Part shown: one piece after another, positions 11,975-64,000 of the stretch | Numbering within the stretch: position 1 is the first letter of the stretch | Layout of the letters: each line of letters opens with the position of its first letter | Assembly: GCA_022564195.1 (NCBI GenBank) | Contig: JADFLW010000001.1 | Location: 711-64,710 of the forward strand | DNA from: Patescibacteria group bacterium | GTDB taxonomy: Bacteria; Patescibacteriota; Microgenomatia; UBA1400; Chisholmbacteraceae | Direction of reading: 5' to 3' | Length of the DNA: 64,000 bases | Position numbers and translations under genes: made by a program | The notes under the pieces: generated by a model | What the model was told of the DNA's origin: nothing | Seen by the model: only the letters and a program-made list of their open reading frames with translations | The model's database searches: none

Positions 11975-12022
11975 CCTTGATTAATATCATCCTCCAATGA
12001 ACTACCCCCTACATCTCAGGCA

Positions 12023-12486
12023 ATTATTGATCTTCTGCGGGAGAGGGCCTGCTGGTTTGAAACCTTTAAGCATGAGCCAGTGCGGACCAGCGAGGAGGCG
12101 GCTCGACTCCGACCTGGGTATTCGTTGAAGCAGGGGGCGAAGGCGATCATAGTCAGGGTCAAGCAGTCAAAAGCAAAGAAATTTTTCGTGATGCTGGTTC
12201 TTCCTGGGGACCTGCGGTTTGATATTAAGAAGGTAAAAGGCGTTCTTTTCTGCCAAGGATATTCGCTTTGCGACGAAGGAAGAAGTGGCGAACATTACAA
12301 ACGGCGTCGATCCTGGTGGCGTGTCTCCTGTTTGGGAATCTTTTTAACCTGCCTGTGTATACTGATCCGAAGCTCTTTGGGCAAGAAAATATTGTGTTCA
12401 ACGCTGGGGATCGGAGATTGTCAATTGCAATGCGATCCCAAGATTTCAGGAAGCTGGTTCAGCCGAAGGTAGTTGATCTGGTGTAA
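12023..12486 (+). pseudogene. YbaK/ProX-family aminoacyl-tRNA deacylase, disrupted by two +1 frameshifts at T-homopolymers (~12243-12250 and ~12341-12345); start codon unclear
   Basis: three reading frames each carry consecutive YbaK-like segments (..KKFFVMLVLPGDLRFDIKKVKGVL / AKDIRFATKEEVANITNGVDPGGVSPVWESF / NLPVYTDPKLFGQENIVFNAGDRRLSIAMRSQDF..); removing one T at each run restores one ORF. Confidence 0.6.
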
Positions 12487-12529
12487 GACGGTAGTCTGAT
12501 ATAGGAGAGCAAGTCACCAAGCACAATTT

Positions 12530-12568
12530 CCTTTTTGTTGACGCTCCGGCCGGAGCGCGTTTAAAAAG
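12530..12568. repeat. ~40 bp extended palindrome (T5-N-CGCTCCGGCCGGAGCG-N-A5GGA), copy 1 of 2
   Basis: perfect 16 bp GC palindrome flanked by complementary T-run/A-run; near-identical copy at 24150-24190. Confidence 0.6.
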
Positions 12569-12693
12569 GATTTAGGAGGCGCGTTGAATGAGGTAGGGTT
12601 CTGTTTCTTTTTATGGTTTTTGATACAATAGCGCAGAGAAGAGGGAATCTCTTGCCGGTTTAGTTCAACGGGAGACCTGCCCGCCAGATGCTT

Positions 12694-12765
12694 GCCCAGA
12701 TAGTTCAGTGGTAGAATGCCATCTTGGTAAGATGGAGGTCGAGGGTTCGATCCCCTCTCTGGGCT
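12694..12765 (+). tRNA. tRNA-Thr (anticodon GGT)
   Basis: hand-folded; acceptor GCCCAGA/TCTGGGC, anticodon loop TTGGTAA, T-arm GAGGGTTCGATCCCCTC. Confidence 0.8.
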
Positions 12766-12839
12766 CAGAACGCAAGGCAGGCGGGGCACTCCGACGTAAC
12801 GTCGGAGAGGTCGAGGGTTCAAATCCCACCTCAGGCTCT
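12766..12839 (+). other. degenerate tRNA-like fragment: duplicated 3' part of tRNA-Thr(GGT) (variable loop + T-arm + 3' acceptor strand) preceded by a perfect 9-bp-stem hairpin; no matching 5' acceptor strand
   Basis: AGGTCGAGGGTTCAAATCCCACCTCAGGCTC aligns to tRNA-Thr AGGTCGAGGGTTCGATCCCCTCTCTGGGCTC; palindrome CTCCGACGT-A-ACGTCGGAG. Confidence 0.45.
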
Positions 12840-12858
12840 GAGATTAGGATATTTTTAT

Positions 12859-13116
12859 ATGACGGAGAGTGAGTATTACATCCTTGGGGAGGATGAATAT
12901 AAGCTGGAGGTTCCGAAAGACGTGGTTGATTCCATATTTGGTGGATCCTCTGGCACTACCCTAAGGAATAAGTTCGGCATCGAGCTGTCGGATGCGGACA
13001 GATGGTCTGTAGAGTTAGCGCGAGATTGGATTTCGGATGATTTCCGAGATTTTGTGAATCGGGTGAAGGAAAAGAGAGCGGAGGCGGATTCCCAAGCTGA
13101 TTCGTCTCAGGAATAG
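12859..13116 (+). CDS. hypothetical protein (86 aa)
   Basis: in-frame ATG downstream of tRNA region within track ORF 12724..13116 (whose 5' part overlaps the tRNAs). Confidence 0.45.
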   Translation: MTESEYYILGEDEYKLEVPKDVVDSIFGGSSGTTLRNKFGIELSDADRWSVELARDWISDDFRDFVNRVKEKRAEADSQADSSQE

Positions 13117-13174
13117 GAGGATATATGTCAACGGGGACTAGCATTGAGTCGGTTTCCCTTTCATAAAGGGGGTC

Positions 13175-13330
13175 TATGGCTAAGAAGAAGGGATCGAGAA
13201 TCATCATCGGGCTGAAGTGCTCGGAGTGTGGGGCGTTTAACTACATCACCGAGCGCAACAAGGTGAACACACCGGAAAAGCTCGCGATCCGAAAATACTG
13301 TAAACGGTGTCGGAAGCATACCGAGCATAA
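13175..13330 (+). CDS. rpmG: 50S ribosomal protein L33 (zinc-ribbon type, 51 aa)
   Basis: hand translation [51 protein letters not shown]; CxxC..CxxC L33 pattern; below the 60 aa cutoff so absent from ORF track. Confidence 0.8.
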
Positions 13331-13373
13331 GGAAACGAGTAAGTTGAAGTAGAGGACAGTCTGACTCCTGCCC

Positions 13374-14192
13374 GTGGCTGGCAAGACGATGCATCAACCT
13401 CAGGGCAAAGAATTCGGGTCTCATGATCATGAGACACATTCCCTTCGGGCCGAGGGGATTCTGGTGCTTGCTGCTTTAGGCTTCACCGCAGCCGGCTGTC
13501 GACTTCTTGTTCCTGAAGAGACTCCTGCCGTAGAGCCGGCCCCTCGTCCTACCGCCGCACTCGCGCTTGAAGCTACCGCGACGGAAGCCGTCGCAGAAAT
13601 TCTGCCGGCGGACCTTGCTCTCATGGAGCGGGTGCGTGCCGAGGATCGAGGAGAGCCTGTGGAGGTGAAGAATGTGCTTGTCGAGCGCGTGTTCCGATAC
13701 ACTCGGCCGAAACGAGACGCGATTTTTGCCGAGCTTGCTGTTGAATATGCGGATGGGAGTACGCAAGCCTTTGCTTATCTTGAAAATGCGGATTGCGTCA
13801 AGGATCGGCTCGAAGCTCAAGGAAGGCTAGGCTTGGAGGAGAAGTCGGGCAGGTGGCGCACGCACGCACGGATGGATTTGGAGACTCAAGTGCTTTCCGC
13901 TTCCTCAGCCCAGATCCCATATCCGGTGCTCACGCTGACCGGCATCGTTGTATCCGGTGAAGGTGAGCCGCGAGCGGTGCAAGTCTGTGAGAAAGTTCCC
14001 CTTGCGAAAGATCTTCTGGAGGATCCGTATGAGGATGTCAAGGTATTCCTTGAAGATCTTGAGGTTCCCGATATTGATCTTCCGAGCGTTCGGGAGGCTG
14101 GGCGCTGGTTTGGACGCACATTCGGGGATTTGTTTCGAGGGATTATTGAGGGCGTGGATGAGAGTGGAGACACTCCGACTCCAATTCCTTAG
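13374..14192 (+). CDS. hypothetical lipoprotein (signal peptide with AAGC lipobox-like motif)
   Basis: ORF track; N-terminal hydrophobic segment ILVLAALGFTAAGC. Confidence 0.5.
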   Translation: MAGKTMHQPQGKEFGSHDHETHSLRAEGILVLAALGFTAAGCRLLVPEETPAVEPAPRPTAALALEATATEAVAEILPADLALMERVRAEDRGEPVEVKNVLVERVFRYTRPKRDAIFAELAVEYADGSTQAFAYLENADCVKDRLEAQGRLGLEEKSGRWRTHARMDLETQVLSASSAQIPYPVLTLTGIVVSGEGEPRAVQVCEKVPLAKDLLEDPYEDVKVFLEDLEVPDIDLPSVREAGRWFGRTFGDLFRGIIEGVDESGDTPTPIP

Positions 14193-14391
14193 GGTCTTTT
14201 TTCATTTCTTGTTTTATTCAAGTACCATACACGCTGTTTGCAACACGCGGAGCGTCCGTTTAGTGCAGATGGTCACGTCCATGACTGGGCGGAGGCGCTT
14301 GGGTTGAAGGGACCACTGGCGACGGTTCACCACTGGCAGGGTTTCCCAGCATCTCCCGTTTGTGTATCTTCTAGGGAAGGAAGCGTAACTA

Positions 14392-15717
14392 CTATGCAAG
14401 CAAGAGCAGGGTTTTGAGTATACTTTGTGCTCCATTTAGGAAGAGAGGATCTATTTCCAGGGCTTTTTCTATGGCGTGGGCGAACCAAGTCTCGTGGTCG
14501 TGAATCGCTGGTTGCTCCAGGGCTTGTATTTGCTTCTGAAAGGTTTCCGGTGTGGCGCGGCGGGCGATCCCGCGTTGCTCAAATGTTTCCTGGATGCGCT
14601 CCTCCCACTCTCCCCAGGGTTCCATGAGGAGCAAGAAGCAGCCGGCCGCCGCGGCGTCGTAGGCCATGTCGCCTGATGGCTTGGTGATCACGCCATCAGC
14701 CCAGGGGAACATCCAGTTGATGAGCTTCTCGTTGGCGTCCATGATGTTGTTGCCGCGGAGGATTCGGTAGACCGCGTTGGGATCGTTCTCGTTGCCGACC
14801 GATATCTGGTGGTTTTGGGCAAAGAGCCCGAACATCGTCGCGAAATCCTCGTGGGTGCCGGCGTAGCAGATGAGTTGGACATGTGGCGGCGGATTCGTCA
14901 GGTAAGGGAGCAGTTGATTCAGGATGGTTTCGATTTCGCCTTTGTTGGTCCCAAGACCTCCGGTGGTGATTGCCAGTCGTATGCTTGCGGAGATTGGAGA
15001 TGGTTCTGAGAAGCGCTTGCTGAATTTGGCAACCGATTTCCCCTTTCTCGCATCGACAATGCGGGGATCAACGGGTGGGCCGGTGACGTGGACGCGGTCT
15101 GGGTGGAGTTTTTTCCCCTCGCGTTGGGCTCCCTCGAGCATCTCGATCTTGGTTTTGTCGTCAAAGACGGCGTAATGCAATTTCTGATTGTCAGCGTACT
15201 TGAGGTATTGGGGGCGGACGTGGGGATCGGTGACGGCTTGGAGTACGGTTTTCCCGGCTTCGACCAGGAGATTGCCGGTTTCGTAGTGGAAGGAAGCGAT
15301 GGGGCGCGTGACGTTTTTGAAAAGAAAAAGGAGTGGGTCTTTGATGGCGTCGGAGATGGGGAGTTTGTTGCGGGCGCGAGTGTCGATCATGTCTTTAATT
15401 TTTTTGAGGGTTTCGTGGCGGGCGACGGCTTCAGCGATCTTTTCGGTGACGAGCACCTTGTGCCAGTCTTCAGCCGCAACGAAGTTGGTGGGATCGACGA
15501 ACCAGAAGGTTTTGCCTTCCATGCCGGCGGCGATCAAGAGCGAAAGAGCTTGGGAGTAGTGGGCGCGGGAGAAGACGATCTCTTCACGCTTGAATTTATA
15601 GGCGTGCTGTTGTGAGATATGGTCGAGAAAGGTGGCGGAAACGGTGGCGATGGGAACCTCGGCCTCTTGGAGAAGCTCGCGTTCATGTTTGAGAACTTCT
15701 TGCAGCTCGTTTTCCAT
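14392..15717 (-). CDS. glycosyltransferase, GT-B fold (GT28/MGDG-synthase-like C-terminal domain)
   Basis: ORF track; C-terminal ITKPSGDMAYDAAAAGCFLLLMEPWGEWEE resembles GT28/GT1 donor-binding domain; N-terminal domain atypical. Confidence 0.45.
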   Translation of the reverse strand: MENELQEVLKHERELLQEAEVPIATVSATFLDHISQQHAYKFKREEIVFSRAHYSQALSLLIAAGMEGKTFWFVDPTNFVAAEDWHKVLVTEKIAEAVARHETLKKIKDMIDTRARNKLPISDAIKDPLLFLFKNVTRPIASFHYETGNLLVEAGKTVLQAVTDPHVRPQYLKYADNQKLHYAVFDDKTKIEMLEGAQREGKKLHPDRVHVTGPPVDPRIVDARKGKSVAKFSKRFSEPSPISASIRLAITTGGLGTNKGEIETILNQLLPYLTNPPPHVQLICYAGTHEDFATMFGLFAQNHQISVGNENDPNAVYRILRGNNIMDANEKLINWMFPWADGVITKPSGDMAYDAAAAGCFLLLMEPWGEWEERIQETFEQRGIARRATPETFQKQIQALEQPAIHDHETWFAHAIEKALEIDPLFLNGAQSILKTLLLLA

Positions 15718-15789
15718 CAGGTTTAATGGTAATGAGTTTGGGAGGACTTGTCCAGCGAGGAGATGATTACTATAGGTTATTTCGGGAAG

Positions 15790-15807
15790 ACTACGCGATC
15801 GCGTAGT
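15790..15807. promoter_or_regulatory. perfect 18 bp palindrome ACTACGCGATCGCGTAGT in divergent intergenic region
   Basis: read directly; ~75 nt upstream of minus-strand GT gene start. Confidence 0.3.
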
Positions 15808-15900
15808 TTAATGGCCGGGAAGAAGCAGGCAAAGATACCATGATGCTATAATACATGATTGTCGATCTCTTAAAACGGATTTATCTAAGGAGGTGTTTGA

Positions 15901-15966
15901 ATGAAGATTGAAGCGGGATCTCAAACTGGCGATGCTCAAGAAGTGAAGCATCCACGCGTCGGATAG
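15901..15966 (+). CDS. candidate 21-codon micro-ORF (MKIEAGSQTGDAQEVKHPRVG) with near-consensus SD TAAGGAGGTG
   Basis: SD-ATG spacing 8 nt; extended -10 TGcTATAAT at 15844-15852 upstream. Confidence 0.25.
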   Translation: MKIEAGSQTGDAQEVKHPRVG

Positions 15967-16221
15967 TATGTTGATCGCGAGCAATTGGAGCAGGTGAGGC
16001 AGGCGTTGGGTGAGCATCCGGATGTTGAGGAGTATGATCTCGCATTCCCCCTGGCATCACTCAATTTCCGACTGGAGATGGACACACGATCATTCTCAAA
16101 GAACACGATGATCCAGAAGGTGTGTCCGTCGTCGAATGTGACCCTGAAGCTGTTCCGATCATTACAGATATTTTAGGTTTTGAGGGTATCCGGTAGCCTT
16201 CATTTGCTCCTCACAGATATT

Positions 16222-16251
16222 TTGAACAATACTACATGTGTAGGGTAAAAT
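16222..16251 (+). promoter_or_regulatory. candidate sigma70 promoter for tRNA-Trp (TTGAAC -N18- TAAAAT)
   Basis: hexamers read in sequence 14 nt upstream of tRNA 5' end. Confidence 0.35.
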
Positions 16252-16264
16252 AGGGAGACAATCT

Positions 16265-16335
16265 AGGCCCGTGATGAAATGGTATCATGAGGGTCTCCAA
16301 AACCCTTCTTCCAGGTTCGAGTCCTGGCGGGCCTG
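16265..16335 (+). tRNA. tRNA-Trp (anticodon CCA)
   Basis: hand-folded: acceptor AGGCCCG/CGGGCCT, D-stem ATGA/TCAT, anticodon stem AGGGT/ACCCT loop CTCCAAA, T-arm CCAGGTTCGAGTCCTGG. Confidence 0.8.
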
Positions 16336-16352
16336 CAAAAAGATTGTAGTGG

Positions 16353-49715: not shown

Positions 49716-49915
49716 ACTCACCACTTCTCGGTCCCTCCAAATACTCCCCATAAATTTGTTGTAATGAGTACACTCTTTCTCCAAGGGCGGTTTCCATGGT
49801 CATTGGTTTTTTGCATGTTTCTCTCGCGACTCGGCTTCATCGGTTTTTCTGATGGTCTTTGATGCAGATATTGCTGGTTGCATAGATTTTGAAGGCTCTG
49901 TTAGCATGGATTCAA

Positions 49916-52126
49916 ATGGCAATGTGGCAGGTTCGAAAACGAAGCGGAGAGGTTGAGGATTTTCAAGCACCCAAGATCACCCAATCGATCGTCATGGCGC
50001 AATCCAATGTCGGGATCACCGATGCTGAGCAAGCAAAGCGGGTCGGCAGGCTGGTTTTTTCGGACCTTCAGAAGCGTTTAGCTCAAGATCGTGTGATCGG
50101 CACGGATCAGATCGGTGATGCGGTTGAGCGGATCCTCATCGATGAGGCGCTGTATGAGATCGCCCGTGCCTACATCATTGCCCGTGAGCGGCAGCGGCAG
50201 GAAACAAGAGCAGAGAAGCAGCTCGGGGTGGTGGATGATGTTGGTCTTCCTTACAACTCCATCGTGGTCATTCGCAACAAGTACCTCAAAAAAGATGAAC
50301 AGGGAAATCCCATTGAGACACCGAAGCAGATGTTTGGGCGAGTGGCGAAGACGCTGGCTCGGGCTGAGAAGAAGCGTGGTGCCTGGGAGGACCGGTTTTT
50401 TGATGTCATGGTTTCCCTGCGGTTTTTGCCGGCTGGGCGAACGCTTGCCAATGCGGGAACAACGAATAATCAGATGGCGAACTGCTTTGTTCTGCCGATG
50501 CCGGATAGTGTGGAAGGCATCTTTGAGGTGGTGAAGGCAAGCTCGATACTCAAGAAAAACGGTGGGGCAGTTGGCTTTAACTTCGGAAAGATCCGCCCCA
50601 AAGGGGATGTGGTTGCCGGAACGACCGGTGAGGCCTGTGGTCCGGTGGCGCTGATGAAGATCCTCAACGATGCCTCGGACATTCTTCTACAAGCGGGTGG
50701 TCGGAGAAGCGGCAACATGGTGCTGCTTCCGGTTTCCCATCCTGATGTACTTGAGTTTGTCACCTGTAAAGAGGATGAATCGCTTCTTCCCCACATCAAT
50801 TATTCCTTGGGGGTGACCAGCAAGTTCATGCAGGCGGTGGCGGATGATGAACCATGGGATTTAGTAAATCCCAGAAATGGAGAGGTGGTCAACACGGTTT
50901 CGGCAAGGAGCATTTTTGATCTGGCCAGTTCCTTGGCTTGGCGCAACGGTGATCCCGGGATGGTGTTTTTGGATCGGGTGAATCGCGATAATCCCACGCC
51001 GCAGGTTGGGGTTCTGGAGGCCGTCAATCTCTGCGGGGAGCAGCCGCTTCTTTCTTGGGAGGCGTGCAACCTGGGATCAATCAATTTGGCCGCGCATCTC
51101 TCAAGCAATGGCAAACGAACCATGGATTGGAAGAAACTTGAAGAATCGGTACGGCTCGGGATCCGGATGCTTGATAACGTGATTACCCAGTGTAGCTATC
51201 CGGTGAAGGAAGTGGAGCGGATGGTGAAGAGCAATCGAAAGATCGGATTGGGCGTCATGGGGTGGGCGGATGTGTTGGTCCGATTGGGAATAGCCTATGG
51301 CAGCGAAGAGGGGCTACGGTTGGCTCGCAAGACCATGAAGTTTATTCGAAAGATTGCCGAGGATGAGAGCGCGAGGTTGGGTCGGGAGAAGGGGAGTTTT
51401 CCAAACTTCGCTGGTTCGCTTTGGCAGAAGAGCGGATTCAAGCACTTTCGCAATGCGACGCTTTTGACCATCGCTCCGACTGGCTCGATCAGCATGGCGG
51501 CGGGAGTGAGCTACGGCATAGAGCCGCACTTTGCATTGGCGTTTTACAAAGAAGCGATGGGTGGGATTCAATTACCTGAAGTGAACTCGGATCTACTTGA
51601 GGTACTTCGTGATGTCGGGATTGACGACAATGGACTATTGGATGAGATTGCCCAGACCGGGACGATCCAACATTTGCCCCAGATTCCGGAGAAGATTCGC
51701 AAAGTATTTGTGACTGCCCACGATTTAGGCCCGAGTGATCATGTCTTAACACAAGCTGCGTTTCAACGCTACACGGACAACGCGGTTTCCAAGACGATTA
51801 ATCTTCCGCATGACGCGCGGGTTGAGGATATTGAGGAAGCCTTCATGCTTGCCTGGAAGACGGGGTGCAAGGGGATCACTGTGTATCGGGATGCGAGCCG
51901 CAAGGTACAGGTTTTGAATGTTGGGAAACAGGCGAGAAAGCGTCAAGCGTCTAGCGTCAAGCGTCGAGGGAGGAGAGAGGGAGCAGTTGATCAACCCCTA
52001 CAAGCTAAGAAGCTAAGAAGCTCTGTAGCCTCGAGAGATGAATGTCCGCAGTGCGGGGCGAAGATGCAGATGGCAGAAGGTTGTGCCACCTGCCCGTCAT
52101 GCGCATTTTCCGTTTGTTCGGTGTAG
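49916..52126 (+). CDS. nrdJ: adenosylcobalamin-dependent (class II) ribonucleotide reductase with N-terminal ATP-cone and C-terminal zinc ribbon
   Basis: ORF track (TTG 49889; first ATG 49916); ..VRKRSGEVEDF.. ATP-cone; RNR core; C-terminal CPQCG..CATCPSCAF. Confidence 0.85.
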   Translation: MAMWQVRKRSGEVEDFQAPKITQSIVMAQSNVGITDAEQAKRVGRLVFSDLQKRLAQDRVIGTDQIGDAVERILIDEALYEIARAYIIARERQRQETRAEKQLGVVDDVGLPYNSIVVIRNKYLKKDEQGNPIETPKQMFGRVAKTLARAEKKRGAWEDRFFDVMVSLRFLPAGRTLANAGTTNNQMANCFVLPMPDSVEGIFEVVKASSILKKNGGAVGFNFGKIRPKGDVVAGTTGEACGPVALMKILNDASDILLQAGGRRSGNMVLLPVSHPDVLEFVTCKEDESLLPHINYSLGVTSKFMQAVADDEPWDLVNPRNGEVVNTVSARSIFDLASSLAWRNGDPGMVFLDRVNRDNPTPQVGVLEAVNLCGEQPLLSWEACNLGSINLAAHLSSNGKRTMDWKKLEESVRLGIRMLDNVITQCSYPVKEVERMVKSNRKIGLGVMGWADVLVRLGIAYGSEEGLRLARKTMKFIRKIAEDESARLGREKGSFPNFAGSLWQKSGFKHFRNATLLTIAPTGSISMAAGVSYGIEPHFALAFYKEAMGGIQLPEVNSDLLEVLRDVGIDDNGLLDEIAQTGTIQHLPQIPEKIRKVFVTAHDLGPSDHVLTQAAFQRYTDNAVSKTINLPHDARVEDIEEAFMLAWKTGCKGITVYRDASRKVQVLNVGKQARKRQASSVKRRGRREGAVDQPLQAKKLRSSVASRDECPQCGAKMQMAEGCATCPSCAFSVCSV
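51938..51965. repeat. tandem heptamer (AAGCGTC/AAGCGTC/TAGCGTC/AAGCGTC) inside nrdJ coding region
   Basis: read directly; encodes ..RKRQASSVKRRG.. Confidence 0.6.
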
Positions 52127-52175: not shown

Positions 52176-52562
52176 ATGTTGGAGAATTTTGCGAAACCAC
52201 AGATTGTCGTTGACTACGCTTACCAGCTCCGGGATGGGAAGACCGGTCATCACCTAAAGTACAGTACGTACAGTCCTGACCTTTTTGTGCGTCGTACGCT
52301 CTTGAGTACAGAAAACGATGCCTACTTCGCGACCGCAATCCATGAAAGGGTGACTGTGGTCCTCTCCTATCATCAAGAGTCTGACTCATCTCGAGCATTC
52401 CATTTGCTTCTGTGGGGAGGGACTGAGCAAGCAAAGCAAGCGATTGTTGAGGGAATTGGGTCAACGCTGGAAGGTGTTCGTGAGCTGTTCGCTTGGAGTT
52501 CAGTGACTCCTGTAGAGGTGAAAGAGAGAGGCAAGTACGTTTGGGAAGTACAGTTGGAATGA
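52176..52562 (+). CDS. hypothetical protein
   Basis: ORF track. Confidence 0.45.
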   Translation: MLENFAKPQIVVDYAYQLRDGKTGHHLKYSTYSPDLFVRRTLLSTENDAYFATAIHERVTVVLSYHQESDSSRAFHLLLWGGTEQAKQAIVEGIGSTLEGVRELFAWSSVTPVEVKERGKYVWEVQLE

Positions 52563-52637: not shown

Positions 52638-52883
52638 TTAGTCTTCTAGAATTTCCCAGTAGGAATCGGGTTTTTTGAGTCCGAATGTGTTCCAGACCCA
52701 ACTGATGTCCTGCTGTGCTTCTGGGGTGGACTCAAATTCCAGTCCTCTTGCGTCAAAGAAAGTTGATTCTGACAATGTTTTCATAAACTCTTGGTCTTTT
52801 TCTGTCATGTTTGGATACGCGAGGATTCTGAAGATGCCTACGAGATTGCGGAGTCGCGTTCTGCTCTGGGGATTCAATAACAC
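52638..52883 (-). CDS. hypothetical small protein
   Basis: ORF track. Confidence 0.35.
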   Translation of the reverse strand: MLLNPQSRTRLRNLVGIFRILAYPNMTEKDQEFMKTLSESTFFDARGLEFESTPEAQQDISWVWNTFGLKKPDSYWEILED

Positions 52884-52949
52884 TCTCAGCGCCTGCTGCT
52901 CTCAAAAGGGGCTTGTTTTCCATGACTTCTTTGTGATAGCTTCTGAACG

Positions 52950-54521
52950 ATGAGTGTACGGGCACGCGGCTGGCCGATCTATTACAAAGATATTCTCCTT
53001 GTTAACGATCCTGATCATCACCTCGGGATCTGCTGTTTGTGGACCGAGCGGCAGGTGGTTGCCAAGCTCATTGGTGACGCCAAGTACAACGTGATTGGGA
53101 ACTTGTATAGCGCCCAGGGGATCAACGCGATGATGCGCAACATCTTTGCCAATCCCGCGATTCGGACAATCGTTCTGTGGGGGGCAGAGATGAGTCTTTC
53201 CGGGCATTCGCTGTTGATGCTCATGAAAGAGGGGCTCGATCGCGAGCGGCGGATCAAAAATGGTCGCGGGGAGATTGAGCGTGAGATTCCGAGACGGGCC
53301 ATTGAGCAGTTCCGGCGCGTGGTTGAGGTTGTTGATTTGCGTGGGAGAGATAAGGACGAGCTTATAAAGACGGTTAAGCGTCTCGCTTCGGAAAAGAAGA
53401 AGCCTTTTGCCAAGAAGCCTAAGACATTTCCCAAATCGCAGCCGCAGTTTAGTGTTCTTCCGAGTGAGAAAGTAGGATTTCGCGTTTCTTCTCCGAAGGT
53501 TGCCAAGACCTGGCTCAAGCTTCTTAACGAAATCTATAAATATGGTCTTCCTAAACACACGCGCTACAGCAAGGACAACGAGATTCGCGAGATTTTGAAT
53601 TTGACGGCTGTGGTGACCGATGAGGATCCTGAAGACATTTACTTTCCTGCGTACCTTCCATTTAGCGAGATAGAGATGAAAGCATACTACGCAGAGCTTC
53701 TGACAGCCAGACAAATTCCCGGTGTCGCATATAACTACGGTCGGCGGTTGCGGCTGGAACTTGGAGTGGACCAAATTAAGAAAATGAAGGAGCTGATTAA
53801 GAAACGGCCGGCATCCAAGAAGATGGCAGCGTTTACCGCCGATGTCAAAAAGGATTGGAGTAAGGTGCACAAGGGCGATACGCCCTGCCTGACACAAATT
53901 CTGGGAAGTATTTACGAGAACAGGTTCTATTTCACGGCCCATTTTAGAAGCCAAGACATGGTGCACGGATGGCCACGCAACGCCTTTGCCTTGCGAAAAC
54001 TTCAACAAGATATTGCTGGTGATACAGGATATTCTCTCGGACCGCTCACCATTATTACTCACAGTGCTCATATCTATGGTGATGACTTCCTGTTGGTTGA
54101 GAACCTGTTGATGGACCACTACGAGAAGGAGTTGGGATTCACGCCGGCAGTGCATTTTAAATTCGATCCGCGGGGAAATATCGTCATTGAAGTTGTGAGT
54201 CGCAATGATGCGTTGGTTTGGCCTGAGTTCGCTCATCGATATGACAAAGAGGCGGTGCCGTATGCGGTTAGCATGGGCTTGAAGCGTCTACCGAAGCGGG
54301 GAAGAAATGCCGGGAAACTCATACGGGCGACCATTTATGCGCCGGATGGCGGAGCGCCGCTTAAGGTTTTTGAAGGGAGGACTGCTCAGGAAGTGGCGTA
54401 TCAAATCGCTGATTGGGGATATATTTCAGAGTCAAGCCATTCAATGTATATTGGCTTGGAGTTACAGCGGGCGGAGGAAGCGATCATTCGTGGGGGTGGG
54501 TATCACCAAGATCCGGCATAA
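52950..54521 (+). CDS. thymidylate synthase (ThyA)-family enzyme (~330 aa) fused to a ~190 aa N-terminal domain of unknown function
   Basis: ORF track; catalytic signatures align with E. coli ThyA: ..GDTPCLTQ.. (Cys nucleophile), ..RSQD.. (R166/D169), ..GWPRNAFALRKL.. (N177), ..HSAHIY.. Confidence 0.7.
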   Translation: MSVRARGWPIYYKDILLVNDPDHHLGICCLWTERQVVAKLIGDAKYNVIGNLYSAQGINAMMRNIFANPAIRTIVLWGAEMSLSGHSLLMLMKEGLDRERRIKNGRGEIEREIPRRAIEQFRRVVEVVDLRGRDKDELIKTVKRLASEKKKPFAKKPKTFPKSQPQFSVLPSEKVGFRVSSPKVAKTWLKLLNEIYKYGLPKHTRYSKDNEIREILNLTAVVTDEDPEDIYFPAYLPFSEIEMKAYYAELLTARQIPGVAYNYGRRLRLELGVDQIKKMKELIKKRPASKKMAAFTADVKKDWSKVHKGDTPCLTQILGSIYENRFYFTAHFRSQDMVHGWPRNAFALRKLQQDIAGDTGYSLGPLTIITHSAHIYGDDFLLVENLLMDHYEKELGFTPAVHFKFDPRGNIVIEVVSRNDALVWPEFAHRYDKEAVPYAVSMGLKRLPKRGRNAGKLIRATIYAPDGGAPLKVFEGRTAQEVAYQIADWGYISESSHSMYIGLELQRAEEAIIRGGGYHQDPA

Positions 54522-55022: not shown

Positions 55023-56315
55023 ATGGAAAAATTCGAAGGTCTACTGAATCCCATAGAGTTGCAGAGCGCTCATGCAAGCATTCTTGAGCGGATTATTCCT
55101 CCTGAGGGATTGCTTCTCCCTCAAGATCCAATTCTCAAACAGGGAACGACGGGTCTCAAGATTCATATCTTTGAATTCGCTTCAACAGATGATGTCGATA
55201 TTCCGGGTGCGATCGCTGCTGTGTACCCAGAATTAGCGGGTGTCTTTCCTAACGTACTGGTTCTTAAACATCGGGGGGATGAGCCGCATCGGTACTTTGA
55301 GAACATGGGGGAGATTGGGAATCAGACTGTTCTTAATGAAACACGTGTTGACCAGAGAGTCCTTACTAGTGGTTTGGTTCCGTCAGCGCTTGGGCTTGGT
55401 CGAATTGAGAAACACTCTAATGGCATGCGTTTGTTTCCCGACAGTGGAGATGGCTCAGATACGCGCGAGGTAGCGATGGTCATGCCCTATTACGACGAGA
55501 GCACTGATTTTGGCAAGACATTACATGCACGGAAAGATGGAGAGTTTCGAAGAGAAATAATGGATCAAGCAGTTGCGCTCGGCTTTGCGTTTGAGAGAGC
55601 GATGCCGAATCAGCATAGGGCAGAGTATTCGGGATTAGCAGGAATACAGCGGTTGATTAAAGAGACTTTTGATCGAGCCCAATCATGGTACGGAGAACAA
55701 ACCGGGTCATCGAGTATTTCCGGAGGGGTTGAGTTGGGAGAAGCAGAAGTAGCTGCTGAATCAGGAGAGCTTTTTCAAGACAGCATTGACAGGTTGTTCG
55801 CTGATCCTGAGTTTAAGAAATATGTTGATCGGGAGAGAAGGATCGGGGGTTTTGTTGACGTGCACGGTGATTTACGGCCTTATGACAATGCCAATGTTGT
55901 TACCACAACGCGTGGTCGGCCACTCGTGGTCTTTCGCGATCCGGTACGTCTCTATCTTAAGGATGAGAGAGAGTGGTCAAACTTTCATTTCACTCACCGT
56001 GATTTTCAGCTGGGGTTACTCATGGGTCGTTTCTATAGCGAGGGACACCATGACCTGATTAGTTATGGTATTGAGGCTTTCCAGAGGAGAGTTGGCGAGC
56101 GGAATCGATTGGTGGACGGGCGGATTAGTCAGTTGAGTAAGCCAGAGGCTCAGATGAAAGGACTCGGTATATGTTACGGAGTGTTTGTAGAGATTGTCGT
56201 TGCCAAAGGCAAGATGGTGCGCGGTGAAAATGATGGCCCTCCGATCGTTGATTATTGGCGTGCGGTTGGAGAACTTGCAGATCGTGACTTTCTGTCTTGG
56301 AAGGAGGGGTTATGA
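55023..56315 (+). CDS. putative phosphotransferase with protein-kinase-like/APH-like fold
   Basis: ORF track; strong SD AAGGAGG; ..VDVHGDLRPYDN.. resembles HxDxxxxN catalytic loop. Confidence 0.35.
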   Translation: MEKFEGLLNPIELQSAHASILERIIPPEGLLLPQDPILKQGTTGLKIHIFEFASTDDVDIPGAIAAVYPELAGVFPNVLVLKHRGDEPHRYFENMGEIGNQTVLNETRVDQRVLTSGLVPSALGLGRIEKHSNGMRLFPDSGDGSDTREVAMVMPYYDESTDFGKTLHARKDGEFRREIMDQAVALGFAFERAMPNQHRAEYSGLAGIQRLIKETFDRAQSWYGEQTGSSSISGGVELGEAEVAAESGELFQDSIDRLFADPEFKKYVDRERRIGGFVDVHGDLRPYDNANVVTTTRGRPLVVFRDPVRLYLKDEREWSNFHFTHRDFQLGLLMGRFYSEGHHDLISYGIEAFQRRVGERNRLVDGRISQLSKPEAQMKGLGICYGVFVEIVVAKGKMVRGENDGPPIVDYWRAVGELADRDFLSWKEGL

Positions 56316-57067
56316 TTCCGATCTTTATTGCCACAGGACATTCGGGAAGCGGGAAGTCGACTCTCCTGCGATTTGCAAAACAGGCGTTTCAGAACTACGG
56401 ATTGTTTTCGGAGACAGTGACTGACCGTGATCTTCTCTCCCAAGCGGTGGCTCAAGATATGGCAGAGGGCTACGAAGAGCTCGAGGTCGGAGAAGGGAAA
56501 CTTGCAAAGGTCAGCGCTCACGCGGTTTTGTACCGCGATCATCATGATCCGGGACTTCGGGTCTTTACGGTTCGGGATGGCCTGCTATTGAATCGAGTGC
56601 ACCAGAAGATGCGGGACTTAGTTTTCGATTATCGTGATGAGAGTGGATTGGTTGTGGAATGGACGACTGGGCCGAATGTTCATGAGTTCCCCGTTCTTCC
56701 GACTGGTGAGGAGGAATTATATCAGGATGGGAACAGCATCGTTGAGCTGTTTGCCGAGCGTAGGTTAGGAGATGGGAGGCAGGTGCTCATGGTAGCTGTG
56801 AATACCGATTTGGAGCAGCGGATCGAGCGGAACCTTCGTCGCCCAGACCCGATGGATCCTGATGATTTTTCCAAGATATTTCGCGACGGAGGGGAACTTC
56901 GACAGTTTGATGCTGCGCAATTTCCCAAGGGCGTGTTCTTTCATGAGTACGAGAACAACTACGACGATGAAGCACGGTTTTTCCAAGAGATGCGTGAGAT
57001 GTGCGGAAGAGAAGCCCAGAGACTCTTTGAAGGAGGGTGGGTGAACCGAGAACGGCAGAAGAGGTGA
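56312..57067 (+). CDS. P-loop NTPase, predicted nucleotide/nucleoside kinase
   Basis: Walker A ATGHSGSGKST; ATG 56312 with SD AAGGAGGGG, ATGA overlap with upstream stop. Confidence 0.6.
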   Translation: MIPIFIATGHSGSGKSTLLRFAKQAFQNYGLFSETVTDRDLLSQAVAQDMAEGYEELEVGEGKLAKVSAHAVLYRDHHDPGLRVFTVRDGLLLNRVHQKMRDLVFDYRDESGLVVEWTTGPNVHEFPVLPTGEEELYQDGNSIVELFAERRLGDGRQVLMVAVNTDLEQRIERNLRRPDPMDPDDFSKIFRDGGELRQFDAAQFPKGVFFHEYENNYDDEARFFQEMREMCGREAQRLFEGGWVNRERQKR

Positions 57068-57128
57068 TCTTTTGTTTTGAAAAACGGCTCTTGCTATCAT
57101 TTCAAAGGCTCTGTTATTCTGACTAGTG

Positions 57129-58043
57129 ATGAAGCGAGTGAAGGCGATTCTGGATTTTGACGGGACTTTGACCGATGAGACTCGGCAAGCCCAGGAACTC
57201 GCTTCGATTGCCAAGCGGATGCTTGCCGAAGAGATCCTTGAGGTACCCATAGAAGAGGTCGAGACACTTTACCGCGAGATTCGAGAGGAGATCCTACGCA
57301 GACCCCATCGATATTGTTGGGAAGTCAATGGTCTTCCAGCTACTTATGCCTGTGAAGGCGCGTATCTTCTTAATACATCTATTCTTCAGGAAGTAATTCG
57401 CTCAAGTCCCAGTTACGTACGGAAGATTCGCAAGCGCTTTCCGCAGAAATCTCTTGACTCGTTGACCCTATGCTCCAATCACCTTTTCCACACCGGGACT
57501 CTTAAGACTAGGACGCATTTTTTGGATGGGGTGCGGGAACTTCTGGTTTGGCTGATTGAGCATGAGGCGATTGACCCGTGTATTTTGTCGAACTCTGAAA
57601 CCCGCAAAATCAGCAAGAGTTTGTGTTTGCTGAAGATCGGAGAGCGCGGAAGTGACCACGGCTTTGACTATGAGATTGAGATTCTTGGAGATACACGGCA
57701 GTACCATATGGATGAGGAGTGGGGAGAGCATTTTGATCACGGCGAGTACGGCGCAATCCAGGTTGTTCCGGTGAATACGCATTTTTCCATCGATCTTCGT
57801 CGGCCGGTGTATCATGCGGCTCTGAAGAAGGTCGTGGCGGAAGGACATGATGAGGTTGTTGTGGTTGCGGATGGCTTATCGCTCGCTGGCGCCTTGCCGC
57901 TCATGATGGGGTTGCGGTTCATTCTGAAAAAGACCGATCACACTCCTTCTTGGAGTGAGGAGTTTGTCTCTTTGCATCCGAACGGATCGGTGGTTGAGGA
58001 AATTGGGCAAGTCAAGGAAGCGCTTATCTCCCTGGTTGAGTAG
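57129..58043 (+). CDS. HAD-superfamily hydrolase (predicted nucleotidase/phosphatase)
   Basis: motif I ILDFDGTLTD; first ATG after GTG 57126. Confidence 0.7.
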   Translation: MKRVKAILDFDGTLTDETRQAQELASIAKRMLAEEILEVPIEEVETLYREIREEILRRPHRYCWEVNGLPATYACEGAYLLNTSILQEVIRSSPSYVRKIRKRFPQKSLDSLTLCSNHLFHTGTLKTRTHFLDGVRELLVWLIEHEAIDPCILSNSETRKISKSLCLLKIGERGSDHGFDYEIEILGDTRQYHMDEEWGEHFDHGEYGAIQVVPVNTHFSIDLRRPVYHAALKKVVAEGHDEVVVVADGLSLAGALPLMMGLRFILKKTDHTPSWSEEFVSLHPNGSVVEEIGQVKEALISLVE

Positions 58044-58047
58044 TTTG

Positions 58048-58719
58048 ATGGATAGACCTTCTTGGATTTCTGAAATTCTGGCATTGGGGTGGGATTTGGA
58101 CGGGACGCTGTATCGATCGTTTCCTGGGGAGACTGAACTGACGGATATGATTCGCAAGAGGCAGCTGGCTGCGGTGGCGAGCAAGCAAAGATGGGATTTA
58201 CGACGCACTCAGCGTGAATATCGAAAACGGTATCTTGAGTTGGGGAGTAATACGAAGACGATGACGTCATTTGGGATAGATGGAGTTGATTTTTTTACCT
58301 CCATTTGGGATGAGATTGATCTAAAAAAATACATACAACGGGATGGGCGTATCACTGAGCTGTTTGAGCGTTTGCCCGGAAAACGGCATTTCCTGATCTC
58401 AAACAGCAATCGGATCGATCAGATTGAGAAAAAACTCCATCTCATAGGGCTGGATCCAAATGTGTTTGAACTGATTGTCTCGACGGTGGATTTAAAGGCG
58501 GTGAAGCCGGATCCGAAACCATTTCTGGTTGCTTTGGAGAAGCTTCAGTTGAAACCTGGGCAGGTGCTGTTTATCGGCGATCGGGTGACGACGGATGTCA
58601 TGGGGGCGAGGGGAGTCGGGATGCGAACCTGCATGGTTTGGGGCGAGAGTAAAGCGGCTGACATCTCGCTTGCGACGGTGTATGATGTTGGTCGGTTGTT
58701 CAGGGAGGGAAAGACATGA
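58048..58719 (+). CDS. HAD-superfamily hydrolase (second; haloacid-dehalogenase-like phosphatase)
   Basis: motif I LGWDLDGTLY, motif II ISNSN, motif IV GDRVTTD; start ATG 58048 overlaps upstream stop. Confidence 0.7.
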   Translation: MDRPSWISEILALGWDLDGTLYRSFPGETELTDMIRKRQLAAVASKQRWDLRRTQREYRKRYLELGSNTKTMTSFGIDGVDFFTSIWDEIDLKKYIQRDGRITELFERLPGKRHFLISNSNRIDQIEKKLHLIGLDPNVFELIVSTVDLKAVKPDPKPFLVALEKLQLKPGQVLFIGDRVTTDVMGARGVGMRTCMVWGESKAADISLATVYDVGRLFREGKT

Positions 58720-59801
58720 ACGTCTACTTCGGTGCTTCGGTAACGCTTTCTCGAGACTTACTGCCCGTTTATCAAAAGATTGTTTCAGAGATCAAACGGC
58801 AAGGGCATCGTGTCCTTTCCGAGCACGTCGTTGATCCGAAGCTGAAGACAACAGGCAAGCTCGATGCGCGGAGAATCTTTGCCGATGAGGTTGCCAAAAT
58901 TGAGAAGGCAGACGTTATGGTCGCTGAGGTGACCGAGCCTTCTTGGGGTACCGCTTTTTTGGTTGAGGAAGCGCTCGAGCAAGGGAAGCCTGTACTGGCC
59001 CTTTACTTTAAAGATGCTGAGACGCCACTTCCGGTGATGATTCAGGGTCATCCCGAGCTTTATGTTTCCCACTATACTGCTGATAACATCAAGACGGTGC
59101 TTGCCAAGCACTTTGAGCATTTTTCTCAAGCGAATGGTCGGCGCGGCAAGCTTGTAGTGATTGATGGGGCAGATGGATCGGGCAAATCGACACAGACGAA
59201 GCTTTTGCTTTCGTATTATAAAAAGCACGGAATCGCTCACACCTACATTTCATTTCCACGGTACTACACCTCGTTCCATGGTAAACATGTCGGAAGATTC
59301 TTGGCGGGGGAGTTTGGGGGTAACACTGACGTCAGTCCCTACCTCTCATCGTTGGCGTTTGCGCTGGATCGGTTGACAGCCCGGGATGAGATCGTTGAAT
59401 GGCTCAGAGAGGGGAAGATCGTGGTGGCGGATCGATACGTTTCGGCTAGTCTTGCCCATCAAGGGTCGAAGCTGCCTCCGCGCAAGCGGAAAGCATTTCT
59501 CGACTGGCTCTATCGTATGGAGTACAAGGAACACAAGCTGCCAAAAGAGGATGTGGTGATTTATCTTTATGTTCCTGTGGAGGTTGCTCAGAAACTCCTC
59601 CGAAAGGAGGCGCGTCGGAGGGATGTTGCGGATGTTGATGTTGAGCACCAGCGGCGTACGGTCGCTCTCTATAGACAGCTGGTCAAGAGGTACAGATACT
59701 GGGAGATGATTCGTTGCCTGAATTCGAAGGGAGAATTGTACCCGAAGGAAACGATCCACGAGAAGATCCTCAACGCGTTGCGGCGTCGGGAGATCATCTG
59801 A
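58716..59801 (+). CDS. tmk: fusion protein: N-terminal nucleoside 2-deoxyribosyltransferase/Rcl-like domain + C-terminal thymidylate kinase
   Basis: N-domain ..VYFGASVT....GTAFLVEEALEQGKPVLAL..; C-domain KLVVIDGADGSGKSTQ P-loop and ..DRYVSASLAHQ.. Tmk motifs. Confidence 0.75.
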   Translation: MNVYFGASVTLSRDLLPVYQKIVSEIKRQGHRVLSEHVVDPKLKTTGKLDARRIFADEVAKIEKADVMVAEVTEPSWGTAFLVEEALEQGKPVLALYFKDAETPLPVMIQGHPELYVSHYTADNIKTVLAKHFEHFSQANGRRGKLVVIDGADGSGKSTQTKLLLSYYKKHGIAHTYISFPRYYTSFHGKHVGRFLAGEFGGNTDVSPYLSSLAFALDRLTARDEIVEWLREGKIVVADRYVSASLAHQGSKLPPRKRKAFLDWLYRMEYKEHKLPKEDVVIYLYVPVEVAQKLLRKEARRRDVADVDVEHQRRTVALYRQLVKRYRYWEMIRCLNSKGELYPKETIHEKILNALRRREII

Positions 59802-62700: not shown

Positions 62701-62786
62701 TGGCGTCTTTTTTTTGCGAGAGAGACTTTGTTGCTGCCCTCCTTCTTATCGGGTGTTGTCGGGCACTGTGATATCATTGAGCGCGT

Positions 62787-64000
62787 ATGGATATGGTGTT
62801 CCGCTTGATTGCCAAAGAGCGTAAACGGCTGCGAGAACAATTGCAGTTGATCCCGTCTGAGAATTACGCATCTTCGGCTGTGATGCGGGCGGTGGGGTCG
62901 GTTCTCATGAACAAATACTCGGAAGGCCAGGTGGGGAAGCGCTATTATCAGGGGAACGTGAACATTGACGATGTTGAGAGGCTTTGTAAAGAGCGGGCGC
63001 TCAAGCTTTTTGGTTTGGATGGGGACAAGTGGGGGGTCAATGTGCAGGGATTGTCCGGATCGCCGGCGAATTTGGCGGTGTACGTGGCGCTTTTGGAGCC
63101 GGGGGAGCGGATCATGAGTATGTTTTTGCCTGAGGGTGGGCACTTGTCGCATGGCTGGCACATGCCGCATAAGAAGGTGAGTTTTGTCTCCAAGATTTGG
63201 GATGTGGAGTTTTATCATGTGGACCGCAAGACGCGGGTCTTTGACTATGATCAGATTGAACGCCAGGCGTTGAGATTCAAGCCGAAGCTCTTAATTTCCG
63301 GAGGGACGGCATATCCTCGTGAGATTGATCACAAACGGATGGGCCAAATTACACGCAAGGTGGGGGCCTATTACCTTGCGGATATTGCCCACGAAGCGGG
63401 TTTGGTGGCGGCTGGGGTGAACTCGTCTCCCTTTCCTCACGCCGATGTCGTGATGATGACCACGCACAAAACCCTGCGTGGGCCACGGGGGGCGATTATT
63501 ATTTCTCGAAAAAAGCTTGCTCAAAAGATCGATTCTGCCGTGTTTCCCGGGCTTCAGGGTGGGCCACATAACCACACCATTGCCGGGATTGCGGTGTGTT
63601 TGGCTGAAGCGCAGCGAGCGTCGTTTCGCCACTATGCAAAGCAAGTGGTCGTCAATGCTCAGGTTCTGGCATCTGAGTTGGCAGCAGCCGGTTTTGACCT
63701 CGTGAGTGGAGGGACGGATAAGCACCTTCTGCTTGTTGATCTTCGCACGATCGGCATCTCCGGGTGGGTGGCGGCTTGGGCGCTTGAGTACGCCAACATC
63801 ATTGTGAATCGGAATACCGTTCCGCAAGAGACCGCCTCGCCGTATTATCCATCAGGATTGCGGATGGGGACGCCGGCAATCACGACGCGCGGGATGAAAG
63901 AGCGAGAGATGCGGCGGATAGCAGGCTGGATCGTTGCGGTCATCGAGCATTCCCGGAAATGGGTGCTTCCGGAAGGGAAGCAGCAACGACGTCTTTTCGC
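62787..64000 (+). CDS. glyA: serine hydroxymethyltransferase, 3' partial (runs off window)
   Basis: hand translation MDMVFRLIAKERKRLREQLQLIPSENYAS..; ..TTHKTLRGPRGA.. PLP-lysine motif; not in ORF track because no stop in window. Confidence 0.88.
   Translation, partial: MDMVFRLIAKERKRLREQLQLIPSENYASSAVMRAVGSVLMNKYSEGQVGKRYYQGNVNIDDVERLCKERALKLFGLDGDKWGVNVQGLSGSPANLAVYVALLEPGERIMSMFLPEGGHLSHGWHMPHKKVSFVSKIWDVEFYHVDRKTRVFDYDQIERQALRFKPKLLISGGTAYPREIDHKRMGQITRKVGAYYLADIAHEAGLVAAGVNSSPFPHADVVMMTTHKTLRGPRGAIIISRKKLAQKIDSAVFPGLQGGPHNHTIAGIAVCLAEAQRASFRHYAKQVVVNAQVLASELAAAGFDLVSGGTDKHLLLVDLRTIGISGWVAAWALEYANIIVNRNTVPQETASPYYPSGLRMGTPAITTRGMKEREMRRIAGWIVAVIEHSRKWVLPEGKQQRRLF

Follow-up and report, generated by a model that had tools for sequence, protein, structure and literature searches.

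We analyzed a 64,000-nucleotide stretch (the window) of contig JADFLW010000001.1 from a Patescibacteria group bacterium, in which an open reading frame (ORF) running from ATG to TAA at positions 52950–54521 of the + strand, found in the ORF list and by direct reading of the sequence, encodes a protein of 523 amino acids with a ThyA-class thymidylate synthase (TS) core placed between 2 further domains (Table 1). NCBI already holds an identical protein under the title 'DUF4346 domain-containing protein [Patescibacteria group bacterium]'. The original prediction, made from the sequence alone, had described this gene as a ThyA-family catalytic domain of approximately 330 amino acids fused to an uncharacterised N-terminal region of approximately 190 amino acids. 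Every ThyA motif quoted there was found in the protein, namely YGRRLR (residues 263–268), DQI (residues 274–276), PCL (residues 312–314), RSQD (residues 333–336), PRNAF (residues 342–346), and HSAHIY (residues 371–376). Searches with PF00303, TIGR03283, and hhalign confirmed that the catalytic domain is genuinely of the ThyA class, and the N-terminal domain to which it is joined is real and conserved, being kept in hundreds of homologues.

Pfam detected 3 domains in the protein, not 2. The MtrA family (PF04208) matched residues 5–154 (E = 2.7e-12, 47.1 bits against a threshold of 25), the Thymidylat_synt family (PF00303) had its best stretch at residues 270–388 (E = 8.5e-10, 38.6 bits against a gathering cutoff of 24.3), and the PterinBD-DUF4346 family (PF14251) matched residues 406–521 (E = 3.2e-12, 47.5 bits against a gathering threshold of 29.6; E = 1.6e-13 and 51.6 bits for the isolated C-domain). 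The approximately 190 N-terminal amino acids, in which no recognisable motif had been reported, are an MtrA-like domain (PF04208, PDB entry 5laa, and Foldseek) plus a linker. The approximately 330 C-terminal amino acids, previously assigned to ThyA as a whole, consist of a minimal ThyA core of approximately 215 amino acids (residues ~179–395), for which the assignment holds, and an independent domain of approximately 120 amino acids (residues ~404–523, PF14251), for which it does not. An AlphaFold2 (AF2) model built from 91 diverse homologues reached a mean predicted local distance difference test score (pLDDT) of 94.4 and a predicted template modelling score (pTM) of 0.88, with every segment at 50 or above; it replaced an earlier model from 16 close homologues in which the TS core was poor (pLDDT 60). 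The model indicates that the 3 domains would form a single compact body. Columns with at least 90% identity numbered 30 of 146 in the N-domain, 40 of 217 in the TS core, and 10 of 68 in the C-domain, and 5 of 28 in the linker region, which is also the block of lowest pLDDT (78).

For the TS core, the methanogen-type TS model (TIGR03283) aligned to residues 180–381 over profile positions 4–199 of 201 (E = 3.7e-32 to 4e-33), and when the core profile was aligned with E. coli ThyA by hhalign, the probability was 98.3%. The latter alignment equates E. coli Arg21 with Arg205, Tyr94 with Tyr263, the Arg126/Arg127 pair with Lys290/Lys291, Cys146 with Cys313, His147 with Leu314, Arg166 with Arg333, Ser167 with Ser334, Asp169 with Asp336, Asn177 with Asn344, His207 with His374, and Tyr209 with Tyr376. 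A set of 91 sequences shows no variation at Cys313, Ser334, Asp336, Asn344, His374, Tyr376, Tyr261, and Tyr263 and has Arg333 conserved in at least 90% of its members, and the same active-site residues are at least 90% conserved in a set of 45 sequences reaching down to 27% identity. Judging from these positions, the TS core CATALYTICALLY is predicted to be complete for deoxyuridine monophosphate (dUMP) chemistry, with the nucleophile, the residues recognizing the dUMP phosphate and the uracil, the pterin-contacting Asp336, and His374/Tyr376. Asn344 we take to specify uracil, and not cytosine, in the substrate, following established knowledge of ThyA and dCMP hydroxymethylase. Cys313 lies in the context TPCL, and the leucine at the position of His147, singled out earlier as notable, is unremarkable because B. 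subtilis ThyA has valine there (PCV). According to hhalign, the core has no counterpart of residues ~60–90 of E. coli ThyA (the Trp80/Trp83 loop) or of its C-terminal ~50 residues (~215–264), the 2 elements that clamp the folate in classical ThyA. Foldseek placed the phage dCMP hydroxylase AfhB first among solved structures (9iqu, template modelling (TM) score 0.83), followed by the CMP hydroxymethylase MilA and by dozens of ThyA structures (E ~1e-11).

The N-domain retrieved the cobalamin-binding MtrA structures 5laa and 5l8x in a PDB sequence search (E = 4.4e-13, and 1.8e-22 with the family profile) and the same 2 entries with Foldseek (E = 2e-8, TM ~0.7), and it scored 51.7 bits with the MtrA equivalog TIGR01111, below the cutoff of 249. 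In MtrA, the lower axial cobalt ligand is His84, which Glu54 holds in place; the corrin ring, whose contacts with the protein are only loose, is touched by Asn55 and Asn82; the nucleotide tail occupies a pocket formed by Asp17, Lys52, Thr53, Gly57, and Asn64 with the base sandwiched by Tyr18 and Val61, and the most conserved region is a meander with the consensus GAIPF-[YF]-x-EN (PMC4915002). With the 5laa numbering checked by counting to His35, Glu54, and His84, both single-sequence and profile alignments to this structure showed a family-wide deletion of 2 residues at Gly83-His84. Positions 54 and 55 are variable in the fusion family (Glu54 aligns to alanine or to a variable residue), Asn82 is lost, and the meander is shortened to RGEIE-x-EIP. 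No conserved histidine was found in the His84 loop of 131 diverse representatives. His86 of the query was rejected as a replacement cobalt ligand, being glutamine in the relative P0082 and glutamate, aspartate, glutamine, or lysine across the wider family, and a metal site at Cys28/Cys29 was rejected on the grounds that neither cysteine is conserved beyond the close clade. His-on cobamide binding by the N-domain was likewise rejected, since His84, Glu54, and the meander are missing.

What the N-domain keeps from MtrA is Gly57, Asn64, Thr53 (as Ser/Thr54), Asn68-Pro69, Gly78, Asp/Glu80, and an N-terminal Trp-Pro, and what it has gained are the family-specific residues Trp31 (131/131 representatives), Tyr53 (126/131), and Arg63 (119/131). 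The domain leads into the TS core and not into a transmembrane helix, in contrast to MtrA with its C-terminal membrane anchor, and no mtr genes were found in the window or in the related loci. The N-domain is thus under strong and specific constraint, about as conserved as the catalytic core, and conservation at the level of the active site means that it must do something specific. Its sequence argues against His-on cobamide binding and may be compatible with base-off/His-off binding; a ligand is probably held in the old tail pocket, but not as a His-on corrinoid.

DUF4346 is predicted to be a small pterin-binding domain. The isolated N- and C-domains matched residues 111–271 and 315–370, respectively, of NF002128, a 390-residue family annotated 'MtrA', and the isolated C-domain also matched the C-terminus (residues 434–494 of 497) of TIGR00284, an archaeal dihydropteroate-synthase-like family. 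These 2 matches indicate that DUF4346 is attached to pterin-dependent enzymes and that at least one further family pairs it with an MtrA-like domain. The TS core appears, from this domain order, to be inserted between the 2 modules of a recurrent MtrA-like/DUF4346 pair, which may be a general accessory module of pterin enzymes. The full name of NF002128 is 'tetrahydromethanopterin S-methyltransferase subunit A', and its 'MtrA' naming may mislead. DUF4346 of the query also carries a two-helix insertion of ~36 residues (residues ~420–455, window positions 54207–54314) that is confined to the Microgenomates-type clade, is missing in DPANN, Chloroflexota, and other members of the Candidate Phyla Radiation (CPR), and is poorly conserved (mean pairwise identity 0.28).

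Table 1. Features of the fusion gene and of its neighbourhood, in window coordinates.
Feature	Position	Strand	Evidence
Whole gene, three-domain protein (MtrA-like / minimal ThyA core / DUF4346)	52950..54521, stop codon included	+	ORF, Pfam, AF2
N-terminal MtrA-like Rossmann-type domain, residues 5–154	52962..53411	+	PF04208, 5laa, Foldseek
Lys/Pro-rich inter-domain linker, residues 155–178, ending in a conserved PSE..GF motif	53412..53483	+	conservation, pLDDT
Minimal archaeal/methanogen-type ThyA core, residues 179–395	53484..54134	+	TIGR03283, hhalign, Foldseek
Codon TGC of Cys313, equivalent to the E. coli ThyA nucleophile Cys146	53886..53888	+	sequence reading, alignment
C-terminal DUF4346/'PterinBD' domain, residues 404–523	54159..54518	+	PF14251; clade-specific insertion ~420–455
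Class II adenosylcobalamin (AdoCbl)-dependent ribonucleotide reductase (NrdJ) with ATP-cone, immediately upstream	49889..52126	+	Pfam; TIGR02504 NrdJ_Z, 621 bits against cutoff 400
HAD-family hydrolase, recurrent neighbour	57955..58719	+	Pfam; homologue near the fusion in 23/85, including an archaeal locus
Nucleoside 2-deoxyribosyltransferase-like (PF05014) and dTMP kinase (PF02223) in a single ORF	58716..59801	+	Pfam; NF005923/TIGR00041
Serine hydroxymethyltransferase (glyA), partial, runs off the window	62781..64000	+	phmmer with the serine hydroxymethyltransferase of locus L001, E = 5.5e-122

We then looked at the genes surrounding the fusion, counting neighbours in 84 related loci (window excluded) or 85 sequences (window included). 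Downstream in the window lie a P-loop kinase-like ORF, 2 HAD hydrolases, the deoxyribosyltransferase-like/dTMP kinase (Tmk) fusion, a phosphoribosyltransferase, and then serine hydroxymethyltransferase (SHMT). A gene of the dCTP deaminase/dUTPase family is present in 40/84 loci, Chloroflexota and archaeal ones included, and dTMP kinase is no further than 8 kb from the fusion in 26–30/84 loci, again including archaeal ones. NrdJ is adjacent to the fusion gene in 14/84 loci (15/85 with the window), and HAD hydrolases, SHMT, and FolD occur in 22, 8, and 4 of the 84 loci, respectively. In distant CPR members the genes recur as DprA-TopA-(NrdJ or dCTP deaminase)-fusion-kinase-HAD-Tmk, and SHMT and FolD lie at a distance of a few kb. 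Thymidylate (dTMP) kinase consumes the TS product, and SHMT makes 5,10-methylene-tetrahydrofolate (methylene-THF). One relative, P0167 (733 amino acids), contains the same 3 domains followed by a C-terminal dCMP deaminase, which is a direct link to dUMP supply. The gene lies in a conserved dTTP-supply island, and dTMP synthesis is well, though only indirectly, supported by these neighbours (dCTP deaminase, class II ribonucleotide reductase, dTMP kinase, SHMT, and FolD) and by the dCMP deaminase fusion. No cobalamin, THF, or ZTP riboswitch was detected before the gene at gathering thresholds or at E<=1. Likewise, searches with E. coli dihydrofolate reductase (DHFR) and with a DHFR profile of 3 sequences detected no FolA-type DHFR ORF in ~1 Mb, comprising the 84 loci with 8–10 kb flanks and the window.

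Several other observations concern the locus itself. The deoxyribosyltransferase-like/dTMP kinase ORF belongs to the same operon and is unusual in fusing a salvage-type domain to a kinase. Between the TS gene and the HAD/Tmk genes, the operon contains 3 + strand ORFs: a 430-amino-acid ORF (55023–56315) with no Pfam or NCBIfam match, a 256-amino-acid ORF (56297–57067) with a weak P-loop (AAA_18) match alone, and a 305-amino-acid ORF (57126–58043) with a weak HAD match alone. All 3 are below the curated family thresholds, and only the Chisholmbacteria loci L005 and L006 yielded homologues of them. The interval from NrdJ to the TS gene contains an ORF of 128 amino acids (52176–52562, +) and one of 81 amino acids (52638–52883, −), neither with a family match, and a small ORF with no family match also precedes the fusion in L001 (119 amino acids, −) and L003 (66 amino acids, +). 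An antisense ORF of 444 amino acids (52902–54236, −) covers the greater part of the TS gene; it is not supported by homology, and the skewed composition presumably allows it as a shadow ORF. The GC skew, (G−C)/(G+C), is positive in every 2-kb bin of window positions 1–64000 (0.02–0.26, mostly 0.1–0.25) whatever the coding strand, and the entire window seems to belong to a single replichore in which the bias of G over C is unusually strong. The tRNA genes Thr-TGT, Tyr-GTA, Thr-GGT, and Trp-CCA (11793–16336, +) lie near those of ribosomal protein L1 and NusG, an ordinary housekeeping context.

Searching 1.84 billion cluster representatives with a profile of the protein returned 3803 matches at E<=1e-3, 389 of them at E<=1e-30, and the best 150 were nearly all full-length (450–530 amino acids). 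The best 120 clusters (90% identity) all carry the same 3 Pfam domains and are 59–82% identical to the query. When GTDB was scanned with one genome for each species, at least 577 genomes were found to encode a relative. Among the matches listed, the nearest are from Ca. Chisholmbacteria (80% and 78% identity), which marks the window as DNA of a Chisholmbacteria-like CPR bacterium of the Microgenomates group, and the other carriers belong to the CPR (Gottesman-, Woese-, Beckwith-, Pace-, Cerri-, and Kerfeldbacteria), DPANN (Woese-, Nano-, Micr-, and Aenigmarchaeota, and Nanobdellota), Chloroflexota (Chloroflexia and Aggregatilineales), and, with one metagenome-assembled genome (MAG), Thermoproteota; all of these are MAG-derived, and a search for a carrier in culture found none. 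The architecture, which had been called unusual, is so relative to E. coli, but it is widespread in nature, with hundreds of clusters in Pfam and NCBI annotation. In much of the CPR and of the DPANN archaea, and in some Chloroflexota, the fusion appears to be the standard TS. Database names of the relatives vary between 'thymidylate synthase', 'DUF4346 domain-containing protein', and 'hypothetical'. Variants include P0224 (837 amino acids), with 2 DUF4346 stretches that may be a tandem duplication, and P0193 and P0173, with N-terminal extensions of 150–275 amino acids that have no Pfam match. A CPR-type version of the protein, at 47–66% identity, is encoded in many MAG records that bear the title 'uncultured Pseudomonadales' or 'uncultured Gammaproteobacteria' (L007, L011, L013, L016, L027, L030, and others); several of these loci have CPR synteny (DprA-TopA-fusion), and their organism titles are probably placeholders or mislabels. 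A phage origin, or a function as a hypermodification enzyme, was rejected after tblastn against 50,697 phage records, which gave 11 weak matches (24–28% identity) to the TS core alone.

We propose that the gene encodes the ThyA-class TS of the organism and that its accessory domains act as a cofactor-binding lid or tail clamp, a reading that we consider probable, if by no means assured. Cys313 would attack C6 of dUMP, the C5 enolate would take the methylene of a 5,10-methylene-tetrahydropterin, most likely the methylene-THF from the nearby SHMT, and hydride transfer from the pterin would yield dTMP and dihydropterin. The 2 accessory domains would replace the folate-clamping elements of classical ThyA that are missing here, with DUF4346 predicted to sit exactly where the C-terminal closing segment of ThyA would be. 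The MtrA-like domain would be a re-purposed scaffold that has lost the corrin-ring anchors and kept the nucleotide-tail pocket, and not a His-on cobamide carrier. A lid or tail clamp for the cofactor is the most likely role of the MtrA-like/DUF4346 pair as judged from sequence topology only.

Several points weigh against this proposal. TIGR03283 is the closest model, yet the TS core lies outside this equivalog, scoring 111.5 bits for the full protein and 114.5 for the isolated core, below the trusted cutoff of 174.55. The Arg126/Arg127 pair, which in E. coli reaches across the ThyA dimer interface (Arg126'/Arg127'), is Lys290-Lys291 here and Arg-Arg in the DPANN and Chloroflexi members, and Arg205 (Arg21 in E. 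coli) is not conserved outside the CPR clades, being histidine, glutamine, or lysine in distant members. Methylation and hydroxymethylation of dUMP are inseparable by sequence alone, and the pterin cofactor may be THF or, in archaeal members, a tetrahydromethanopterin (H4MPT)-like compound. Finally, the conservation of the N-domain (Trp31 in all 131 representatives, Tyr53, and Arg63) exceeds the apparent need of a passive lid.

Alternatively, the MtrA-like domain and DUF4346 could form no passive lid but a catalytic cofactor-handling module that either reduces dihydropterin in cis or methylates dUMP through a corrinoid, which we regard as unlikely. In the first case, to which we assign a lower probability still, the MtrA-like domain would bind NAD(P)H, flavin mononucleotide, or F420 and DUF4346 would bind the pterin, and together they would reduce the dihydropterin product to the tetrahydro form, a functional counterpart, without homology, of the DHFR-TS fusions of protists. 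Such self-recycling would fit the failure to find a FolA-type DHFR ORF in the ~1 Mb of neighbourhoods, though SHMT and FolD are present there, and the occurrence of DUF4346 at the end of TIGR00284, another enzyme with a dihydropterin product. It would also fit the nucleotide-type pocket kept by the N-domain together with its new Trp31, Tyr53, and Arg63, the equal conservation of this domain and the catalytic core, and the compactness of the model. However, the protein has no dinucleotide-binding glycine motif and no reductase family match in Pfam, NCBIfam, or the PDB. Moreover, a folA missing from flanks of 8–10 kb says nothing on the remaining genome, and functional folA genes are reported to be common in CPR genomes (PMC11974145).

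In the second case, a corrinoid-dependent dUMP methyltransferase, the N-domain would bind a cobamide base-off with no histidine ligand, like corrinoid iron-sulphur proteins, and DUF4346 would present a methyl-tetrahydropterin to form methyl-Co(III); the Cys-activated dUMP enolate would take the methyl group to give dTMP and tetrahydropterin, making DHFR unneeded. Both its sequence and its fold make the N-domain a genuine homologue of MtrA; it keeps Gly57, Asn64, and Thr53 (as Ser54) of the tail pocket, and it has a near-invariant Ser/Thr84 at the position of His84 if the loop is read ungapped. The adjacent AdoCbl-dependent NrdJ indicates that the organism uses salvaged cobamide, and the loose corrin-protein contacts of MtrA (PMC4915002) would also suit this route. 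It nonetheless seems to us very improbable: His84, Glu54, Asn55, Asn82, and the GAIPF[YF]xEN meander are all lost family-wide, whereas the pterin-contacting Asp336 and the full set of ThyA methylene-transfer residues, superfluous for methyl-Co(III), are kept. Neither a methylene-THF reductase nor a gene for corrinoid reactivation nor a cobalamin riboswitch was found in the vicinity, and we know of no precedent for the route.

We also considered a function other than dTMP synthesis, in which the protein would be a pyrimidine hydroxymethylase or another C5-modifying enzyme of the TS fold; examples are a dUMP hydroxymethylase that serves to modify DNA and a hydroxylase similar to AfhB. AfhB and MilA are the top structural matches of the core, the weak phage tblastn matches include annotated dUMP and dCMP hydroxymethyltransferases, and methylases and hydroxymethylases are not rigorously separable at the sequence level. 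We give this possibility hardly any credence. The core has the ThyA-type RSQD and WPRNAF, including the Asn344 that presumably selects uracil, whereas AfhB has RSQN and lacks the Asn177 motif, and because of these 2 differences the resemblance to AfhB probably reflects shared small size and not chemistry. Linkage to dTMP kinase, dCTP deaminase, ribonucleotide reductase, and SHMT is kept in cellular genomes of 3 phyla-level groups, and the gene is near-universal in its clade, with no second TS gene seen in the neighbourhoods. That the N-terminal extension is an annotation artefact, arising from a wrong start codon (a concern raised in the original prediction) or from 2 genes merged by a sequencing error, is refuted by the data: although no obvious Shine-Dalgarno-like sequence lies upstream of the ATG, residues 150–200 contain no ATG, GTG, or TTG codon, the amino acid conservation of the N-domain and the same architecture recur in hundreds of independent assemblies, and the single-chain model is confident (pTM 0.88).

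The sequence itself is not new, since the three-domain layout is already visible in Pfam and NCBI annotation and many copies have been automatically named 'thymidylate synthase', which tells against the layout being unusual. In full-text literature searches, however, we found no publication that discusses this layout or that describes or tests the fusion, its MtrA-like domain, or DUF4346. What is new is a ThyA with unstudied, highly conserved accessory domains, documented as a third architectural form. Thymidylate synthesis is an essential process and a classic target for drugs, and to our knowledge only 2 classes of TS enzymes, ThyA and ThyX, are known. Together, the CPR, DPANN, and Chloroflexota groups concerned account for a considerable part of microbial diversity, and they rely on cofactors that they scavenge. 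The role of the N-domain would clarify the one-carbon and DNA-precursor metabolism of these ultra-small symbionts and the re-purposing of a B12-binding scaffold of methanogenesis. If the accessory domains only clamp the folate, the result would be a useful annotation correction for variously named proteins, and interest would rise sharply if they prove to be catalytic. Reduction in cis, if true, would amount to a new type of dihydrofolate reductase activity, distinct from FolA, and would show how some genome-reduced lineages with ThyA could manage without folA, and the corrinoid route, if true, would be a third mechanistic class of TS beside ThyA and ThyX.

Among characterised enzymes, ThyA (EC 2.1.1.45; PF00303, minimal type TIGR03283) has the same fold as the core described here, a nucleophilic cysteine in P-C-x, the equivalents of Arg166/Ser167/Asp169, Asn177, His207/Tyr209, and Tyr94, and a shared metabolic neighbourhood (dUMP supply, dTMP kinase, and SHMT). 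E. coli ThyA has about 264 amino acids, whereas the present core has ~215, lacks the Trp80/Trp83 loop and the bacterial C-terminal closing segment, and has Lys-Lys in place of Arg126/Arg127. We know of no characterised ThyA with the 2 extra flanking domains. The bifunctional DHFR-TS of protists (PDB 3inv, 1qzf) is likewise a chain of ~520 amino acids that combines a ThyA domain with another folate-related domain, which raises the possibility of a coupling between TS and cofactor handling. Here, in contrast, the accessory domains are unrelated and flank the TS core on both sides rather than precede it, and no part of the protein matched a DHFR domain (PF00186) in Pfam, NCBIfam, or the PDB.

MtrA, the cobamide-binding subunit of the methyl-H4MPT:coenzyme M methyltransferase, and its cytoplasmic homologues (PF04208; 5laa, 5l8x) have a homologous Rossmann-like domain with an N-terminal 'WP' segment, and Gly57, Asn64, Asn68-Pro69, Gly78-x-Glu/Asp80, and residues of the nucleotide-tail pocket are common to both. 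The N-domain of the fusion differs in having no His84, Glu54 relay, Asn55, Asn82, transmembrane helix, or mtr operon, in its shortened meander, and in the new Trp31, Tyr53, and Arg63. NF002128 has MtrA-like and DUF4346-like regions as in the fusion, and TIGR00284 has a DUF4346-like end on a pterin enzyme; both lack a TS domain, and both were compared with the present protein through family profile matches. The closest solved structure to the core is the flavin-dependent dCMP hydroxylase AfhB of phage HY126 (9iqu and 9iqc; TM 0.83, root-mean-square deviation 3.1 Å), which is of similar minimal size and has P-C and R-S-Q motifs. Besides the 2 motif differences described above, AfhB acts on dCMP with flavin adenine dinucleotide and has no accessory domains. 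This comparison suggests that minimal archaeal-type TS cores and AfhB may share a compact sub-architecture of the TS fold.

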